Source of the DNA: Candidatus Latescibacterota bacterium
GTDB lineage: Bacteria; Latescibacterota; UBA2968; UBA8231
Direction: 5' to 3'
DNA length: 64,000 nucleotides
Assembly: GCA_965203175.1 (NCBI GenBank)
Contig: OZ241867.1
Location: 6,368,001-6,432,000, forward strand
The notes under the pieces: model-generated
The model's input: only the letters and a program-made list of their open reading frames with translations
What the model was told of the DNA's origin: nothing
The model's database searches: none
Shown here: piece after piece, positions 13,012 through 20,616 of the stretch
Layout of the letters: each line of letters opens with the position of its first letter
Position numbering within the stretch: the first letter of the stretch is position 1
Made by a program: the position numbers and the translations under genes

Positions 13012-13815
13012 TTACGCCGAATTCGCAGAAGATTCGCCCGGCGGCAAGAGGGAAAACTCCACCTCGAGATGCGTCTCAGGCACGTGCAGATTGCTTTCGA
13101 TCAGAGACTGCCAAGCCCACAAAACCTGCCACCGACTGGCGCGCTGGTCGATAATCTGACGCCGCACCAGCCCAACCCGCCATACATCGCCAGCGGCCGG
13201 AGGCAGGCTCTGCGCGTCCGCCAACCTTTTCAACCCCTCCCAAGGGAAGGCCAGTTCCACGCTCCAGCCTTGGTCGATATCATCCCGTTTATTCAGGGTA
13301 CCCGCAACCTGCACTCCGACCTGTAATCCGGGAAAGCGCCAGTGCGAAAAAGCCCAGCGCATGGCGCGATAGTCGGAATTCGACCCTCCGCCCAAGACTT
13401 CGGGCCGATGCACCGCCAGATCAAACTCCGGCACGTCGTAGCGGCCACCGCGCTGATAGGCCTCCTTCCAGATGTGGAACATCTCTGAAGTCGCGCCCAG
13501 CGGATTGACGGCCAGTTCGTAATACGCTCCCCGACCGACGAGGAGCACCCCGACGTTGTTGTCCTGCCGGACTACCAGCGGATCCTCTTCCTCCGCACCG
13601 CACACATCGCGATCTTCCATCCAAAAGCCCACGTAAAAATTCTGGTCGTCCCACAGCATGGCCGCTCGGGTATCGAAAAGCGATCGCCGTCCGCTGTGAT
13701 CCCCAAAGCGCGGAGAGCGCGGTGCCCGAACCCAAGCTTCTTCCTGCAGGTGGCCGTCCACATCAATGGCGTCTTCGGTCCTATGACAAACGTAGCGCAC
13801 GGTCTTGTCACTCAT
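13012..13815 (-). CDS. Carbohydrate-binding family 9-like (DOMON-like) protein
   Basis: VDGHLQEEAW, AMLWDDQNFYVGF, YYELAVNPLG and WSVELAFPW motifs. Confidence 0.75.
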   Translation of the reverse strand: MSDKTVRYVCHRTEDAIDVDGHLQEEAWVRAPRSPRFGDHSGRRSLFDTRAAMLWDDQNFYVGFWMEDRDVCGAEEEDPLVVRQDNNVGVLLVGRGAYYELAVNPLGATSEMFHIWKEAYQRGGRYDVPEFDLAVHRPEVLGGGSNSDYRAMRWAFSHWRFPGLQVGVQVAGTLNKRDDIDQGWSVELAFPWEGLKRLADAQSLPPAAGDVWRVGLVRRQIIDQRASRWQVLWAWQSLIESNLHVPETHLEVEFSLLPPGESSANSA

Positions 13816-14636
13816 TCCGCACCCACCACCTTTTCGGAAAAATGTATCACACTGAAGCGATCCGGGATGTGCGAATCATAAGTCCCGTGGCTGGTCCAAG
13901 CCCACCCAGGACACACCCGCGTGCCGCCCTCCTCAATCCACTGGAAGCGCGAAAAATCCATCCGCCATATATCCCCTTCCCGAGCCGGCAGCGAGCGCCC
14001 GTCCGCCAAGTGCTTCAACCCCTGCCACGGAAAGGCGATTTCAGCGGTCCAACCCCGGTCGGTGTCGCTGGAATCATTGATGGTGCCGTCCACCTGTACC
14101 GCCCATTGCAACCCCGGCATGTCCCATTCGCGAAAGGCCCAGCGCCGCCCGCGCGGATGCCGATGTCCCGACGGCGGCCCTCCGAGGGTATCCACCAGCC
14201 GGGTACCCAGCAGATCGAATTCGGGCAGCTTGGCGTACCCAGCCTCGATGTAGGCGTCCTGCCACACGTAAAACCGCTCCATGATGGTGCCCAAGGCATT
14301 CAGCTCGAATTCGTAATAGCTATCCTCACCGGCTATGAAGACCTCCACGTCGTTTTCCTCGCAGATCATGGAATCGCGCGTGGTATAGGTCGCCCGCACA
14401 TCCGGGTCTTCCACCCAAAAGCCCACGTAGAGGTACTCGTCATCCCACATCACCGCGGCCCGAGTGTCGAAAAGGGCCGGTCGGCCCGGTTCCTCCAGAT
14501 CCTCGAAACGCGGCGATTTGGGCACCAATTGCCACGATTCCTCGTCGAGGTGCCCGTCCACCACAATCGGACTCTTCGCCCGATAGCTGGTATAGTGCTT
14601 CAAACCCTCTTCCGAATAGCCGTATTTACTCGTCAT
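13812..14636 (-). CDS. Carbohydrate-binding family 9-like (DOMON-like) protein
   Basis: VDGHLDEESW, WDDEYLYVGF, NDVEVFI and WTAEIAFPW motifs; paralog of the downstream gene. Confidence 0.8.
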   Translation of the reverse strand: MTSKYGYSEEGLKHYTSYRAKSPIVVDGHLDEESWQLVPKSPRFEDLEEPGRPALFDTRAAVMWDDEYLYVGFWVEDPDVRATYTTRDSMICEENDVEVFIAGEDSYYEFELNALGTIMERFYVWQDAYIEAGYAKLPEFDLLGTRLVDTLGGPPSGHRHPRGRRWAFREWDMPGLQWAVQVDGTINDSSDTDRGWTAEIAFPWQGLKHLADGRSLPAREGDIWRMDFSRFQWIEEGGTRVCPGWAWTSHGTYDSHIPDRFSVIHFSEKVVGAE

Positions 14637-14757
14637 GTACTGGGTCTCTCCGAATGGCCCAACTTGGGTGTCGAAATTGACCAAGAAAAACTATTCAGGT
14701 ATGCTTAGTACGCGATTTCGCTGTTGGAAGATACCCTACTAGTAGTCATGCGTCGGT

Positions 14758-14785
14758 ATTATAACACACCTCTCGAAAAGGGCAA
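14758..14785 (-). promoter_or_regulatory. Putative sigma70 promoter for the CBM9-like gene pair
   Basis: Minus strand TTGCCC-N16-TATAAT. Confidence 0.45.
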
Positions 14786-14833
14786 CCCATTTGAAATCAC
14801 TGGTTTACAGAATGATTCTTAACGAGGACTGAT

Positions 14834-15205
14834 ATGACCAACAAACTCAAAAATGCTTTCGACAAAATCTCAACTCTGAGCGAAAAAGAGCAGGACGCTA
14901 TCGCGGAAGCTCTCCTAGCGGTAGTAGATGATACTTGGGGGCCAGAGGACGATAAGGACGAAGCCGAATGGGACGCCCTAGTGGGATCAAAAAGATCTCA
15001 TGCTTGGTTGGACAAAATGGTAAAGCAAGTTCGGCAAGATATTCAAGAAGGAAGTCAGGAAGCCATCCGCAGCGGCATGAGCACGGCAGCGTGGTGTTCC
15101 TCCCCCACCTCAAAGTGCAGGGGTGCCTCACTGTGGTCAAGATATATCCGTATCTCCTCTGCCGAGTCTTTCAGAGCCTCCACAATCGTCTTGAGGAAGT
15201 CGTGA
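14834..15205 (+). CDS. Putative orphan antitoxin-like protein whose C-terminus runs into the convergent gene
   Basis: GAGGA RBS; 'LKNAFDKISTLSEKEQDAIAEALL...EWDAL' resembles small antitoxins found before ParE-like toxins; 151-bp overlap with the sigma gene. Confidence 0.5.
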   Translation: MTNKLKNAFDKISTLSEKEQDAIAEALLAVVDDTWGPEDDKDEAEWDALVGSKRSHAWLDKMVKQVRQDIQEGSQEAIRSGMSTAAWCSSPTSKCRGASLWSRYIRISSAESFRASTIVLRKS

Positions 15206-16398
15206 TTCAGGTCGACGCGGAATGACCCTCCATCCTCGATATTCGTCACATCAGCAGGGCAACTCACGGAATGTTCCCAGTCTGGGAAGTCGTCACCGTA
15301 CAGGTCGTCCGCATTTTCCTCGGTCCGACTGAACCCCTGATCCCGCGTCGTTCGCAGCGCTAGTCTCCCCTCTGTACTCGACACCCGCATCTGTACGCGG
15401 GACATGTACTCCCAGCCACTCTTCACCAGTTCGTGGCGCTCTCTGAGAAACGGCTCAATCTCCTCCACGCAGGCCATCAGACTCTCGCTGTGCACGACCG
15501 CCAAGATCGGACCGGGGATGCCGACGGCCTCTTGGTACTTGAGGTACGGTCCAGGAGTTGCCGGGAATGTCACCCTACGGCCGTCCGCAGTCTGCAACGT
15601 GGCCGATTCCTCTTCGAGAATCAGCGTCGCCGCGTCGGTATCCGGGATCATTTCAGGGTGCAATGAATCGAGAATCATCGGAGCCGGCAGCGACGCGAGC
15701 CCCTTACTCGACCAGTTGAGTAGCCGCGAGCCGTCTGTTGCGACGACTCTGCCACCAGCGTCGAGACAGACGCAGTGCATAATGGGCCGCTTGGGATCGT
15801 CGCTTGTGAAGCGAGCTACGTGCCGCAGTCCGGCTAGATCGTCCGCGCCGAGTTCAAATGTCTGTGCAGTGCTGGATTCCGCCATCGCCATGATCTCCTT
15901 TTGCAGGCGTTTCCGGGCCTTTTGCAGACGGCTTTTTACCACTCCGGTTTGGAGGTGCAGCAAGGTTGCTGTCTGCTGATATGAATAGCCCTTGAGGTAG
16001 TGGTGGACAATCACGTCTCGGTGGGAGTCACTCAATCGTCCGATCGCCTTCCGCACCAGCGCCCTGATCTCCTGCTTCTCCTGCTCGGGCGGTGCCGCCA
16101 AGTCGAGCTGATCCAGCAGATTGAGTTGCGTGATACGACGCCGCTGCCACATGCGCGCTTTGTTGTCCGCGATCGAGCACAGCCAGGCACCGAACCGCTC
16201 GGGAGCGCGCAACTTCGCTAAATGCTGGTACGCGGCAATGAACGCCTCCTGCAGCACATCCTCTGCCGCCTCTTGCGCACCCAGCCTGCGAGTGAGCCGC
16301 ACCAGCAGCCACGGCGTGTGTTCCTCAACGAGCAAACCAAACGCCGCAGAGTCGCCAGCAGCAGCCTTCTGCACGCAGCTTTCTCCATTCCGTTCCAT
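15055..16398 (-). CDS. ECF sigma-70 factor fused to a C-terminal DNA polymerase III beta-clamp (DnaN)-like module
   Basis: Region 2 (DVLQEAF...FGAWL) and region 4 (GYSYQQTA...VKSRLQKAR); C-terminal RPIMHCV, VATDGSRL, LNHDFL and VLMPLR match DnaN domain II/III motifs. Confidence 0.8.
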   Translation of the reverse strand: MERNGESCVQKAAAGDSAAFGLLVEEHTPWLLVRLTRRLGAQEAAEDVLQEAFIAAYQHLAKLRAPERFGAWLCSIADNKARMWQRRRITQLNLLDQLDLAAPPEQEKQEIRALVRKAIGRLSDSHRDVIVHHYLKGYSYQQTATLLHLQTGVVKSRLQKARKRLQKEIMAMAESSTAQTFELGADDLAGLRHVARFTSDDPKRPIMHCVCLDAGGRVVATDGSRLLNWSSKGLASLPAPMILDSLHPEMIPDTDAATLILEEESATLQTADGRRVTFPATPGPYLKYQEAVGIPGPILAVVHSESLMACVEEIEPFLRERHELVKSGWEYMSRVQMRVSSTEGRLALRTTRDQGFSRTEENADDLYGDDFPDWEHSVSCPADVTNIEDGGSFRVDLNHDFLKTIVEALKDSAEEIRIYLDHSEAPLHFEVGEEHHAAVLMPLRMAS

Positions 16399-16462
16399 GA
16401 TTACCTTATAGTTGCTTCCTAGGCGACAAAGGTATCCGCAAAAAGGAACCGTCGGGACAAAC

Positions 16463-16501
16463 TTGACAGGATTTTCACAACATGTACAGTAAATAGGTAC
16501 A
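16463..16501 (+). promoter_or_regulatory. yefM-yoeB promoter with TGTACA-type operator repeats
   Basis: TTGACA (16463) N16 TACAGT; TGTACA at 16483 and GGTACA at 16496 resemble the known YefM operator core. Confidence 0.7.
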
Positions 16502-16518
16502 TATCACAGGAGAATCAA

Positions 16519-16809
16519 ATGACCACCATTACGACCTATACCCAAGCCAGAGCCGCACTCGCATCGCTCTGCGACGAAGTCGCCTCCACCCGCGAGCCCG
16601 TGATCATACGGCGGCGCAATGCCGAAGACGTTGCGCTGGTTTCAGCCGACGAATTAGCCAGCCTCCTCGAGACCGCTCATCTCCTCAGATCGCCCCAAAA
16701 CGCCCAACGCCTTCTCACAGCGATCAACCGCGCACAGAGCCGGGAGTTGTCTCCTTCTTCCGTAGAAGAGTTGCGCCGGGAACTCGGTCTTGTCGAAGAA
16801 GAAAAGTAA
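16519..16809 (+). CDS. yefM: Antitoxin YefM/Phd family
   Basis: TYTQARAAL...PVIIRR...ETAHLLRSPQNAQRL; AGGAG RBS. Confidence 0.92.
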   Translation: MTTITTYTQARAALASLCDEVASTREPVIIRRRNAEDVALVSADELASLLETAHLLRSPQNAQRLLTAINRAQSRELSPSSVEELRRELGLVEEEK

Positions 16810-17092
16810 AAGAAAGGACGCCCCCACCGCTCGCGAATGGGTAGGAGTATTCCATCCTGAATTTGTTGAAGATTTGCGTTACTGGGTACAGACCAACCGC
16901 AAAATAGCGCTGCGCGCCTTTGATCTGATACAGGCCGTGCTCCGCGACCCATTCTCAGGTATCGGCAAACCAGAACCCCTCAAATACCTTCCATCCGGGA
17001 CTTGGTCGCGACGCCTTACAGAAGAGCATCGCCTAGTGTACATGGTAAGCGAAGGACGTATAGATTTCTTGCAGGCGCGCTACCATTATTGA
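16790..17092 (+). CDS. yoeB: Toxin YoeB/Txe family
   Basis: PFSGIGKPEPLK, WSRRLTEEHRLVY and C-terminal RYHY. Confidence 0.93.
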   Translation: MSKKKSKRKDAPTAREWVGVFHPEFVEDLRYWVQTNRKIALRAFDLIQAVLRDPFSGIGKPEPLKYLPSGTWSRRLTEEHRLVYMVSEGRIDFLQARYHY

Positions 17093-18840: not shown

Positions 18841-20616
18841 ATGCAGCGCTCCCTACTCATCTTGGTCAGCGGCCTCGTCGCCACTGCGTCGGCTCAGGCC
18901 GGCGGGCTGACCGACGTGCGGCTGACCCTGCTCGATGCCGAGGCCACGGGGTACGCCACCTTCCAGTCCCACAACCAGAAGGTGGTCGCCAACGCCCACG
19001 GTATCTTCACCACCCACATCCGATCGCGCAACGAAGCCTTCACAGCCCAGCAGTGGCACCTGTCCCGCAGCCGCGACGGCGGGGCCACCTTCGAGACCCT
19101 GTACGAGTCAGTGGATGCCACCAACGCCCCGGCGATGGAGACCGACGGCGATGGCAACCTCTACCTAGTGCGCTCCGACTTCAGCGACGGCAGCGCCAGC
19201 CTCTATCGCTTTCAAGCCAGCGACGGCTACGCGCACCCTGCCGTGGCCCGCATCCCGGGGGGCAGCGCCGGCAAGTACTGCATGAACCTCGACGAGGCGC
19301 GGAGCCGGCTCTACTACTTCACCTGGGGCCGTTCCCTCTTCGTCCTCGGTCTCGATGGTGCCGTCCTCGAACGCCAGGAGCTGACGGTGGACGGGGCCAA
19401 CGCGGTGCCCCAGTACCCCCTGTCCTTCCTCGACCCTTCCGGCGTGCTGCACTTCGCCTGGACCACGCAAAAGCACGGAGTCTATCTGTACTGGGACATC
19501 CACTACATGGCCTCCGACGACGGAGCGCTAAGCTGGCGGCGCATGGACGGCACGCCGCTGCCGATACCGCTGCCGACTGACGACAGCGGCCCCAGCGACC
19601 GCATCACCCTCGACGACGAGTTCGAGGTGCATTCCTGGCTGTCGAACCTGCTGGTGAAGGACGGCAAAGCGCACTTCGCCTATGCGGCCCTGACCCCCAC
19701 TTGGCGGCAACACTACGTGCGCTACGACCTAACCACAGCGGCGCGGGACATCGACCTGAACCCCATTTTCGAGGGGGAGGAGGTCCGCCTCGCCAGCCTG
19801 GATGGCTTCTTCGCCAGCCGCGCCGATCTGCCGGAGGCCCCCCTCTACTACGTGTCGAGTGCCGGGGGACGCTTGGGATGCCTAGCCAGCGATGACAACG
19901 GCGAGACCTGGTACGACTACGCTCTGTCCGAGGAGAGCTTCAATCCCTACTCCATCGGCGGGTCCCGCGAGCTGACCGCCGACGGCGCGATCGTCGGCAC
20001 CTTCACCGACTTCCGGGTGACGGAGGGCCGCGACCTCTCTCAGGTCCACTTCTTCCGCATCCAAGCTGGCCTGTCGCGGGCTCGGCTCGAGATCGAGAAA
20101 GGCACCGACGGTCGCCTGGTCCTGCGCTTCCACGAGGTGCGGGGCCGACCCGAGGCGGTGCGCTTCCGCGCCGCATCCGGCCAGTGGGGGAAGTGGCAGT
20201 CCTTCGCCGAGGTCATGGAGGCGGACCCCGGCGAGTTCCCGACCCATTTCCAGTTGCGCAGTCACCTCGGGGTCGAGTCGTCGATCTTCGCGGTGGAATT
20301 CGCCACCGCCATAGGAGAGATCGCCGCGGTCTCCGCAGAGTTCGACCTAGCGCAAAACGCTCCCAACCCCTTCAACGCCCGGACCACCATTGGCTTTAGC
20401 CTACCGGAGTCCGCCGCCTGCCATCTGTCCATCTTCGACCTGCGCGGGCGTCGGGTGCGGGATCTGTTAGCCCAGGCAAGCTTGCCTCCGGGACGGCACC
20501 AAGTGGCCTGGAACGGAACGAACGACGCCGGCAGCAAGGTGGCCTCCGGCGTCTATTTTTACCGGCTGCGCGCCGGCTCAGAAAGCCGCATCCGGCGGCT
20601 CGTGCTGGCGAAGTAA
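18841..20616 (+). CDS. Secreted BNR/Asp-box repeat protein with C-terminal FlgD-Ig (T9SS type A-like) domain
   Basis: Signal peptide; SRDGGATF, SDDGALSW and SDDNGETW Asp-boxes; tail 'LAQNAPNPFNARTTIGFSLP...VASGVYFYRL'. Confidence 0.8.
   Translation: MQRSLLILVSGLVATASAQAGGLTDVRLTLLDAEATGYATFQSHNQKVVANAHGIFTTHIRSRNEAFTAQQWHLSRSRDGGATFETLYESVDATNAPAMETDGDGNLYLVRSDFSDGSASLYRFQASDGYAHPAVARIPGGSAGKYCMNLDEARSRLYYFTWGRSLFVLGLDGAVLERQELTVDGANAVPQYPLSFLDPSGVLHFAWTTQKHGVYLYWDIHYMASDDGALSWRRMDGTPLPIPLPTDDSGPSDRITLDDEFEVHSWLSNLLVKDGKAHFAYAALTPTWRQHYVRYDLTTAARDIDLNPIFEGEEVRLASLDGFFASRADLPEAPLYYVSSAGGRLGCLASDDNGETWYDYALSEESFNPYSIGGSRELTADGAIVGTFTDFRVTEGRDLSQVHFFRIQAGLSRARLEIEKGTDGRLVLRFHEVRGRPEAVRFRAASGQWGKWQSFAEVMEADPGEFPTHFQLRSHLGVESSIFAVEFATAIGEIAAVSAEFDLAQNAPNPFNARTTIGFSLPESAACHLSIFDLRGRRVRDLLAQASLPPGRHQVAWNGTNDAGSKVASGVYFYRLRAGSESRIRRLVLAK

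Follow-up and report, generated by a model that had tools for sequence, protein, structure and literature searches.

Sigma factors of the extracytoplasmic function (ECF) type belong to the main signalling devices of bacteria, and few types of the extensions that they carry are understood. In the classification by Casas-Pastor 2021 (PMC7826278), as presented in its main text, fused C-terminal extensions are the second most common mode of ECF control and typically accompany the absence of anti-sigma factors (19 ECF groups). For ECF41, a SnoaL-like extension is described to contact a linker motif (PMC8999054). Sliding clamps enter transcription in two phage systems. During T4 late transcription, the gp45 clamp encircles DNA and tethers RNA polymerase via gp55 and gp33, and the phage Mu protein MuC is reported to need both clamp-binding motifs and the host clamp for transcription activation. 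From the accounts of these two systems it follows that clamps can drive transcription. Here, we describe a gene in which an ECF sigma factor has recruited a fold that is otherwise dedicated to DNA replication. The gene lies in a stretch of 64,000 nucleotides (nt), hereafter the window, from a Candidatus Latescibacterota bacterium (GCA_965203175.1, contig OZ241867.1, positions 6,368,001 to 6,432,000), and its product consists of a sigma core followed by two domains that correspond to II and III of the beta sliding clamp, DnaN.

The fusion gene occupies positions 15055..16398 on the minus strand, stop codon included, and encodes a protein of 447 amino acids (P0001), as read from the open reading frame (ORF) list and its translation. 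The N-terminal part of the protein is a compact sigma core (residues ~20-170), which scores above the curated cut-offs in both of its regions. Region 2 (residues 23-88; 16135..16332, minus strand) matches Pfam PF04542 (Sigma70_r2) at 4.8e-13 with 49.1 bits against a cut-off of 24, while region 4.2 (residues 114-165; 15904..16059, minus strand) matches PF08281 (Sigma70_r4_2) at 3.5e-11 with 43 bits against a cut-off of 25.7. In addition, NCBIfam TIGR02937 (sigma70-ECF) is reached with 86.5 bits, the cut-off being 42.9. No Pfam match to region 1.1 or region 3 was obtained at E ≤ 10, where only r2, r4_2, r4, Phage_antitermQ and Sigma70_ECF were reported. The sigma core is continued in the same frame by a C-terminal extension of 272 amino acids. 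This extension displays a series of clamp motifs, namely SDDPKRPIMHCV at residues 199-210, VATDGSRL at 219-226, GPYLKYQ at 283-289, VDLNHDFL at 395-402 and VLMPLR at 439-444. The fusion gene is present as a single copy in the host genome, which consists of one 6.58-Mb contig.

The homology of the extension to sliding clamps was detected because profile and structure methods were used, Pfam and the single-sequence PDB search being blind to it. Residues 176-447 alone gave no Pfam match at E ≤ 10 and no PDB match by single-sequence phmmer, and the whole protein gave no Pfam clamp match (DNA_pol3_beta_1/2/3) at E ≤ 10. Likewise, TIGR00663 matched in the host genome only the canonical dnaN gene, and not the fusion. 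The canonical gene (C1:1235577-1236728) encodes 387 amino acids and is located between dnaA and recF, ~5.1 Mb from the fusion gene. The PHROG family phrog_947, 'DNA polymerase processivity factor', was matched at 8.3e-11. When a 16-row family profile of the module (A3) was compared with the PDB, it retrieved 66 chains at E ≤ 1, the best of them at 6.5e-19. Among the best 60 of these 66 chains, the top 55 were bacterial beta clamps and the last five were PCNA-type chains at E 0.12-0.22. The A3 profile aligned to residues 123-270 and 311-366 of E. coli beta. Furthermore, 10 of the 44 family members that were scanned reached E ≤ 0.01 to PF02768 (DNA_pol3_beta_3).

AlphaFold2 modelled the module from 34 relatives with a predicted local distance difference test (pLDDT) value of ~90, and the whole chain from 62 relatives with a pLDDT of 88.9 and a predicted template modelling (pTM) score of 0.70. 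In a Foldseek search with the model, the top matches were all beta clamps, at 5.1e-14 and weaker. VIA-align placed residues 178-446 of the model onto E. coli beta 124/125-366 with Z 20-24 and a root-mean-square deviation (rmsd) of 2.3-3.0 Å over ~230 residues, the best match reaching Z 24.1 with an rmsd of 2.3 Å over 231 residues. The sequence identity between the module and these clamps is ~15% (12-18% in most matches). Domain I is absent, as the structural matches begin near E. coli beta residue 124, and residues 1-175 of the fusion protein are the sigma factor. The two-domain count of the module would also fit PCNA-type chains, which were not among the best 50 VIA-align matches listed. Profile alignment, VIA-align ranges and DSSP of the models assign residues 178 to ~295 (15514..15867, minus strand) to DnaN domain II, and profile alignment, conservation and VIA-align assign residues ~296-446 (15061..15513, minus strand) to DnaN domain III. 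Together these findings identify residues 178-446 as a two-domain copy of beta-clamp domains II and III. A pairwise BLAST comparison of the module with the DnaN of the host gave only a 39-residue match at E 0.002, and at this degree of divergence the match does not decide whether the module originated from the lineage's own dnaN. The nearest clusters in a protein atlas carry the label 'putative DNA polymerase III subunit beta' (244-245 amino acids); their score of 0.84 is below the 0.9 level, which makes them a lead only.

The original prediction, made from the sequence of the window, had read this gene as a complete ECF sigma factor with regions 2 and 4, fused in frame to DnaN domains II and III. 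The first part is confirmed by the Sigma70_r2, Sigma70_r4_2 and TIGR02937 matches, the second by PHROG, the A3 profile, Foldseek and VIA-align, and the five clamp motifs that it quoted are all present in the order given. The clamp fold that it anticipated is what Foldseek and VIA-align recognised in the AlphaFold2 model. Of the two sets of HMMER models that it named, Sigma70_r2/r4_2 was found in the host protein and DNA_pol3_beta was not, though the latter is matched by the relatives mentioned above. For the clamp part, the motifs read by eye had thus gone further than Pfam and the single-sequence PDB search.

The fusion is not confined to this assembly. A word-index search returned 54 clusters, mostly of 440-470 amino acids with sigma domains, with identities down to 52% and with several members on megabase contigs. 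When 1.84 billion representative proteins were searched with the module, 73 were found at E ≤ 1e-3 and 46 at E ≤ 1e-10. Twenty-seven of these 73 representatives have a length of 403-494 amino acids and a module start at ~150-210, and are fusions by length, save one 400-amino-acid DnaN-like match. Sigma70_r2 is carried by 28 of the 44 scanned family members, and 34 full-length relatives were aligned. Within the phylum, 65 of 168 Latescibacterota genomes, all of one class, were matched by the A3 profile at full length (E ≤ 1.7e-56), so that homologues with the same architecture, as sought by the original prediction, do exist. By taxonomic family, the full fusion is found in 29 of 75 genomes plus the host (f1), 2 of 3 (f2), 18 of 22 (f3) and 15 of 31 (f4); this amounts to 65 of 132 genomes in f1-f4, and to 0 of 36 in f5-f14. 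In the host genus it occurs in 20 of 30 genomes, to which one shortened remnant is added. The frames of the full matches listed are uninterrupted over 422-510 amino acids, with one internal TAG (G060). The A3 profile also matches domain II of canonical DnaN, at ~1e-10, in most genomes of the phylum. Near position 15873, the junction between sigma core and module is crossed by Logan contigs that come from three studies, and one Logan contig covers 15000-16500 without a gap. The only indels reported are at 16403 and 16418, outside the ORF. These contigs and the open frame in 65 of the 168 genomes exclude an assembly artefact. The host was found in runs labelled as sponge or marine metagenome.

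Several of the 73 representatives, with lengths of 266-290 amino acids, resembled free-standing modules. A scan of metagenome contigs with an alignment of five such sequences led to six loci, none of them free-standing. Four of the six encode the complete fusion of sigma core and module in an open frame of 461-529 amino acids, and the other two (L156/L157, identical in sequence) hold a decayed copy, in which sigma residues 9-123 and module residues 214-445 lie in different frames and ~90 codons are lost. The existence of decayed copies implies that the fusion gene is dispensable in some lineages. In two genomes, only the first 60-80 module residues are kept (G131:C1:2563690-2563878 and G108:C1:5377352-5377594), and one genome (G137; L134) has kept a promoter-like site with no sigma gene behind it. 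A scan of viral contigs with the module gave two pattern matches, neither of which was a relative, and the PADLOC defence models matched neither the whole protein nor the module.

The linker between sigma regions 2 and 4 carries a motif of the form Q-hydrophobic-x-hydrophobic. In the fusion protein this motif reads Q91-L-N-L-L95 (16114..16128, minus strand), starts directly after the WQRRR that ends region 2, and is followed by a second one, QLDLA. When the sigma-bearing members of alignment A4 were scored for the strict pattern Q[LMIV]x[LFWMI], 42 of 48 carried it, and all 48 did so under a loose definition. In plain ECF sigma factors, which served as a control, the strict and the loose motif were encountered in 1 and 8 of 78 proteins, respectively, and the motif was missing from each of four ECF paralogues of Latescibacterota that carry a different extension (pentapeptide repeats, tetratricopeptide repeats (TPR) twice, and one short). 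Judging from these counts, the linker motif is specific to the fusion family. The clamp-binding consensus, as published, is QL[SD]LF (PMC12867686).

Residue equivalences between the module and E. coli beta were counted from the printed profile alignment. R152 of E. coli beta corresponds to R204 of the fusion protein, T172-D-G-H-R-L177 to T221-D-G-S-R-L226, F241-P-D-Y244 to Y285-L-K-Y288, N320..Y323 to N398..F401, and M362-P-M-R-L366 to M441-P-L-R-M445. The first clamp-like domain has kept R204 and T221-D-G-S-R-L226 and has lost its second channel helix, while the second domain has a divergent first half and carries N398..F401 and M441-P-L-R-M445 towards its end. H175 of E. coli beta is replaced by serine, as in the host's own DnaN, and the module has L286 and A291 where P242 and V247 would be expected. 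In a sequence-weighted comparison of 62 family members, 24 module positions were at least 80% conserved. This set includes R204, A220, D222, G223, Y288, N398, M441 and P442. It thereby takes in the equivalents of E. coli beta R152, D173-G174, Y244, N320 and M362-P363, positions that in DnaN form the lining of the cleft for peptide binding.

A further group of residues is conserved in the family and has no counterpart in the clamp alignment: L318, H322, Y331, position 333 (proline in the family and serine in the fusion protein of the host), G355 and an invariant W374. All of them belong to the first half of domain two, a region that borders the dimer interface in DnaN, and the corresponding profile positions 145-212 were unaligned to any PDB clamp. 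In the region equivalent to the DnaN dimer interface, I314-E-P316, L318 and H322 are strongly conserved. W374, H322, Y331, G355 and the pocket residues are all retained at overall identities of 26-37%. Changes also affect the channel side of the fold. In the first domain, both AlphaFold2 models lack the second channel helix; the stretch concerned is confidently modelled (residues 245-256, pLDDT 90-94), and the family shows a deletion relative to E. coli beta 197-207. Of the four channel helices expected, three remain. The DNA-facing channels of clamps are basic. In the fusion protein, the net charges of the four channel-facing segments are 0, -4, -4 and -1, and the family means for these segments are +0.31, -2.3, -2.53 and -0.61.

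Upstream of the fusion gene, an ECF-type promoter-like element, GGATAC-N16-GCAAC, is located at 16411..16437 (minus strand) and ends 12 nt before the ATG. The upstream regions of 14 loci from four families share GGATAC, a spacer of 15 or 16 nt, and GC[AG][AT]C, and two loci have a GACAC...TCGTC variant. An arrangement of GGATAC, spacer and GC[AG][AT]C is the layout of ECF promoters. Within the window, the pattern had one match, with 0.01 expected. The stricter pattern GGATACYTYN{12,13}GCAWC was found at two sites in the host genome and at none in the reversed control. One of the two is the fusion gene's own promoter. The other lies 34 kb from the first, outside the window, and belongs to a copy of ~80 nt, of which GGATAC forms the exact start; the copied stretch includes the sigma gene up to and including its codon 11, and has TTG in place of the ATG. 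The gene behind this second site is a 779-codon frame with DUF5916 (3.3e-27) and CBM9_1 (4.5e-06) matches; its true start is likely internal and followed by a hydrophobic signal-like stretch. In the host genus, second sites of this class were present in 10 fusion-bearing genomes and in 0 fusion-less ones, and in three further genomes that were inspected the site lies ~235 nt upstream of the orthologous DUF5916 gene. In five more divergent genomes, the fusion gene's own promoter was found in all five. Adjoining the DUF5916/CBM9 gene of the host there is a 310-amino-acid ECF sigma factor fused to pentapeptide repeats (L117:3057-3986, plus strand; C1 ~6347056-6347985, outside the window), and the host genome seems rich in ECF sigma factors with unusual extensions. 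A third recurrent site class of 27 nt, GGATACTTTTC.ACGGCCTTGAGCATC, was rejected as a candidate. Ten genomes of the genus contain it, each a single time and irrespective of whether they carry the fusion (for instance in L130, L136 and L141), and it is probably no promoter because it is independent of the fusion and has only short ORFs downstream in the one genome inspected (L130).

Downstream of the fusion gene lie two paralogous CBM9-like genes, 13812-14684 and 13012-13815, which overlap by 4 nt (span 13012..14684, minus strand). The pair has no obvious signal peptide, and only the gene at 13812-14684, which comes first after the sigma gene, reaches Pfam CBM9_1, at 3.5e-07. This gene also shows homology (2e-08) to the DUF5916 protein, in the N-terminal domain of the latter. 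In a genome of the same genus, the CBM9-like genes follow ~30 nt after the sigma gene, and no terminator-like site was found within 14500-16700. The CBM9-like pair may tentatively be regarded as co-transcribed or functionally linked with the sigma gene.

When 15 loci from four families were compared, no real neighbour family recurred beyond one genus or family. Neighbour families that seemed to recur turned out to be overlapping shadow ORFs of the fusion gene itself. The local recurrences comprise PhyH dioxygenases, UMPH-1 nucleotidases, ABC ATPases and other ECF sigma factors, and the neighbourhoods are metabolic and variable. Among the 15 loci there was no conserved anti-sigma gene beside the fusion, a divergent, unconserved one being possible, and no conserved clamp-loader gene was found near the loci compared. 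The lack of a conserved partner in the neighbourhood fits the rule that extension-bearing ECF sigma factors lack anti-sigma partners, as it is stated in the main text of the classification (PMC7826278).

The explanation that we prefer, with a probability of roughly one half, is that the fusion protein regulates its own gene as an ECF sigma factor and is itself held under control in cis, by a clamp-derived extension at its C-terminus that replaces a separate anti-sigma factor. The extension would derive from beta-clamp domains II and III and would no longer act as a processivity ring, but serve as a regulatory domain that binds a protein or peptide. It would have kept the cleft-lining residues and gained a strongly conserved surface at the former DnaN dimer interface. 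In this mechanism, much as described for the SnoaL-like extension of ECF41, the module would contact the amphipathic Q-hydrophobic-x-hydrophobic segment of the linker and thereby hold the sigma core in a controlled conformation. A cytoplasmic ligand, most plausibly a peptide resembling the clamp-binding motif, would shift this contact and so set the amount of sigma factor that is able to bind core RNA polymerase. The active sigma factor would then transcribe its own gene and, in the host genus, the gene for a secreted DUF5916/CBM9 envelope protein, from GGATAC-N15/16-GCAAC promoters. That the module acts on the sigma core is suggested because the linker motif co-occurs with the module, the cleft residues are kept, a new conserved surface is present and a partner gene is absent. 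The proposal that the module senses clamp-targeting peptides, already contained in the original prediction, is compatible with the retained pocket residues and would be a sub-case of this explanation.

Several observations weigh against it. The contact between linker and module is putative, with indirect evidence from the family-specific linker motif and from the pTM of 0.70 for the whole chain. The better model puts the motif on a long helix (H66-100) that continues from sigma2, with pLDDT ~59-65, and not in the cleft as an extended peptide. Across the wider family only the Q and the fourth position fit QL[SD]LF. The ligand of the module is putative, and the retained pocket and the conserved surface fit rival explanations, such as oligomerisation or binding of replisome proteins, equally well. 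As for the regulon, the proposal depends on the similarity of two promoters in one genus, and the counts of promoters and second sites come from related genomes and are not independent observations. The five more divergent genomes had no site above control besides the fusion gene's own promoter, and the relaxed pattern GGATACN{15,16}GCRWC was not enriched, with 26 sites against 27 in the control.

As an alternative, the fusion sigma factor could plug into clamp biology with its own clamp-derived module, either by ring assembly on DNA or by binding the host clamp, its loader or proteins with clamp-binding motifs, so that promoter use would be coupled to replication or DNA damage. We consider this rather unlikely on the whole; the lost helix, the acidic channel segments and the envelope-type target argue, if weakly, against a DNA-encircling or replication-linked role. 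In its ring form, the module would assemble head to tail into a trimer like those of PCNA and gp45, or into another closed oligomer, around DNA; the ring would tether up to three sigma/RNA polymerase units, promoter search would become one-dimensional scanning, and the protein would amount to a covalent gp45-gp55. The match to clamp domains II and III at Z 20-24 is consistent with this, as is the presence of two clamp domains per chain, which is the protomer layout of trimeric clamps. Moreover, both ring-edge surfaces would be exposed in a monomer, the region equivalent to the dimer interface is conserved (I314-E-P316, L318, H322), and T4 gp45 is described as just such an encircling clamp that tethers RNA polymerase through gp55 and gp33. 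Set against these points are the loss of the second channel helix from a well-modelled stretch and the neutral to acidic channel-facing segments, whereas the channels that face DNA in clamps are basic. By sequence, the module is nearer to beta clamps than to PCNA, which appeared only at E 0.12-0.22, and no clamp-loader gene is conserved nearby. A homotrimer model of three copies of residues 176-447, based on an alignment of 62 rows, reached scores of 0.08 and 0.07, the mark being 0.42, and speaks neither for nor against a ring. The idea of a sigma factor tethered to a ring on DNA, raised in the original prediction, thus gains no support from the lost helix and the channel charges, and we regard ring formation as distinctly unlikely. 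Docking without a ring of its own would make the protein a cellular counterpart of phage Mu MuC or of T4 late transcription: the module or the linker would bind the DnaN ring, the clamp-loader delta subunit or proteins with clamp-binding motifs and thereby tie transcription to replication or replication stress. The module has retained the residues of the pocket that receives clamp-binding motifs in DnaN, both QLNLL and QLDLA are near QL[SD]LF, and without domain I in the module the edge of domain III could pair with domain I of DnaN. MuC is reported to require clamp-binding motifs together with the host clamp for activation, and its authors suggest that this strategy is widespread. However, the wider family keeps only the Q and the fourth position of the motif, and QLDLA is shared by close relatives only. 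The candidate target encodes an envelope protein and is not a gene of replication or repair, and the fusion gene is unlinked to the dnaA-dnaN-recF locus ~5.1 Mb away. Such a docking role is in our view no more likely than the ring.

The retained pocket could also be a lure. The module would then mimic the pocket of DnaN, capture phage proteins, toxins or natural products that attack clamps, and switch on a protective regulon. A pocket that persists in a module only ~15% identical to clamps would suit such a decoy, and the host comes from sponge and marine metagenome runs, settings that are rich in natural products and phages. Nevertheless, we think that this is improbable: the PADLOC defence models gave no match, the scanned viral contigs held no relative, and the neighbourhoods are metabolic and variable. 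The pocket differs modestly from that of the host DnaN at the few motifs that can be aligned, the two proteins being too divergent to judge mimicry. Finally, the clamp-derived domains could be a mere appendage, a stabilising or dimerising scaffold without ligand or switching, with the sigma factor regulated by transcription alone. The absence of an identified ligand or partner and the presence of the gene's own conserved promoter would agree with such a scaffold. Yet the pocket residues, W374, H322, Y331 and G355 are conserved at 26-37% overall identity and the linker motif co-occurs with the module, which points to a specific interaction rather than bulk scaffolding and leaves the appendage only a slim chance of being the right explanation. 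On balance, the evidence puts the fusion protein with those ECF sigma factors whose regulator is attached as an extension at the C-terminus.

Some further features of the locus are worth recording. An RNA-library run (X15), next to which five other RNA rows hold small shares, contains contigs, 90-95% alike, that map to 15060-15273, 15660-15809, 15867-16334 and 16305-16417; the rest of the gene is uncovered and there is nothing beyond 16427. Since these contigs cannot show a start and may stem from DNA carry-over, we claim neither transcription nor a start site from them. On the opposite strand, upstream of the sigma gene, a divergent pair starts ~80 nt from the promoter-like element and consists of a YefM/Phd antitoxin gene (16519-16809, plus strand; 1.7e-18) and a YoeB toxin gene (16790-17092, plus strand; 2.2e-33); a major facilitator superfamily transporter gene is also located upstream. 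At the other end, an antisense ORF of 123 codons without a Pfam match (14834-15205, plus strand) shares 151 nt with the end of the sigma gene and occupies a gap of 370 nt, the equivalent gap being ~30 nt in a genome of the same genus. In a contig from run X2, 439 other letters follow directly after the stop codon of the sigma gene. Farther upstream, a gene for 591 amino acids (18841-20616, plus strand) has BNR_4, FlgD_ig and weak Por_Secre_tail (type IX secretion sorting) matches, which fits an envelope of the FCB group. In one genome (G106), the sigma-clamp gene is flanked on both sides by ECF-TPR fusions of 634 and 567 amino acids (L105:4629-6533, minus strand, and L105:8462-10165, plus strand).

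If the module is a peptide-sensing regulator, the peptide-binding cleft of the clamp would have been reused as a signalling receptor, giving a compact one-component switch with a short peptide as its input. If the protein forms a DNA ring or binds to the replisome, this would make it the first cellular sigma factor with a physical coupling to clamp biology, such coupling being known to date from phages T4 and Mu, and the clamp-activated transcription of these phages would be extended to a chromosomal regulator of a bacterial lineage. The family is small and belongs to an uncultured sponge-associated lineage, and with a defined promoter and a candidate target its hypotheses are testable in vitro. 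The claim in the original prediction that no sigma-clamp fusion has been characterised still stands: none was described in the results of literature searches on ECF or other sigma factors with a sliding clamp, beta clamp, DnaN-like domain or latescibacteria. Clamp, DnaN, polymerase III and the host phylum are likewise unmentioned in the main text of two ECF classification papers; the supplements of Casas-Pastor 2021 (Text S2 and Table S2, which give the extension of each ECF group) could hold a relevant entry.

Compared with DnaN, the module has the same fold, a profile homology of 6.5e-19 and the equivalents of R152, T172-L177, Y244, N320 and M362-L366. DnaN is a three-domain protomer, whereas the module is without domain I, sits behind a sigma factor and has lost one channel helix. 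The first half of its domain III is remodelled with invariant residues of its own, and its gene lies outside the dnaA-dnaN-recF locus. With T4 gp55-gp45, as described, the fusion shares the physical joining of a promoter-specificity factor to a clamp-fold protein. However, gp45 is a separate trimeric ring that is loaded by a clamp loader, and gp55 binds it through a short clamp-binding motif; in the fusion protein, the clamp-like domains are covalently attached and of the beta type instead of the gp45 type, and ring formation is putative. Nor does the fusion end in a clamp-binding motif of the gp55 type, since its C-terminus is the last strand of the clamp fold, M441-P-L-R-M445, and the only resemblance to QL[SD]LF is internal, in the linker. 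The accounts of MuC/Mor resemble our findings in that a transcription factor is linked to the peptide-binding system of clamps via QL[SD]LF-like motifs, to which QLNLL and QLDLA in the fusion linker may be likened. In contrast, the activator MuC is small, binds DNA and acts together with sigma70 and the host clamp, whereas in the fusion the sigma factor itself carries the clamp-derived module. The closest relatives in architecture are the ECF sigma factors that bear an extension at the C-terminus, such as ECF41 (SnoaL-like), ECF42 (TPR) and ECF238 (Cys-rich), in which a sigma2-sigma4 core is likewise followed by an extension of >50 amino acids. Like the fusion, they have no conserved anti-sigma neighbour and an autoregulatory-type promoter, and for ECF41 and ECF238 a group-specific motif in the sigma2-sigma4 linker is reported, as we find in the fusion family. 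They differ from it in the nature of the extension, which in the fusion is a two-domain sliding-clamp fold of ~270 amino acids. The fusion protein thus combines a known control logic, that of an ECF sigma factor with a fused extension, with an unprecedented extension domain.

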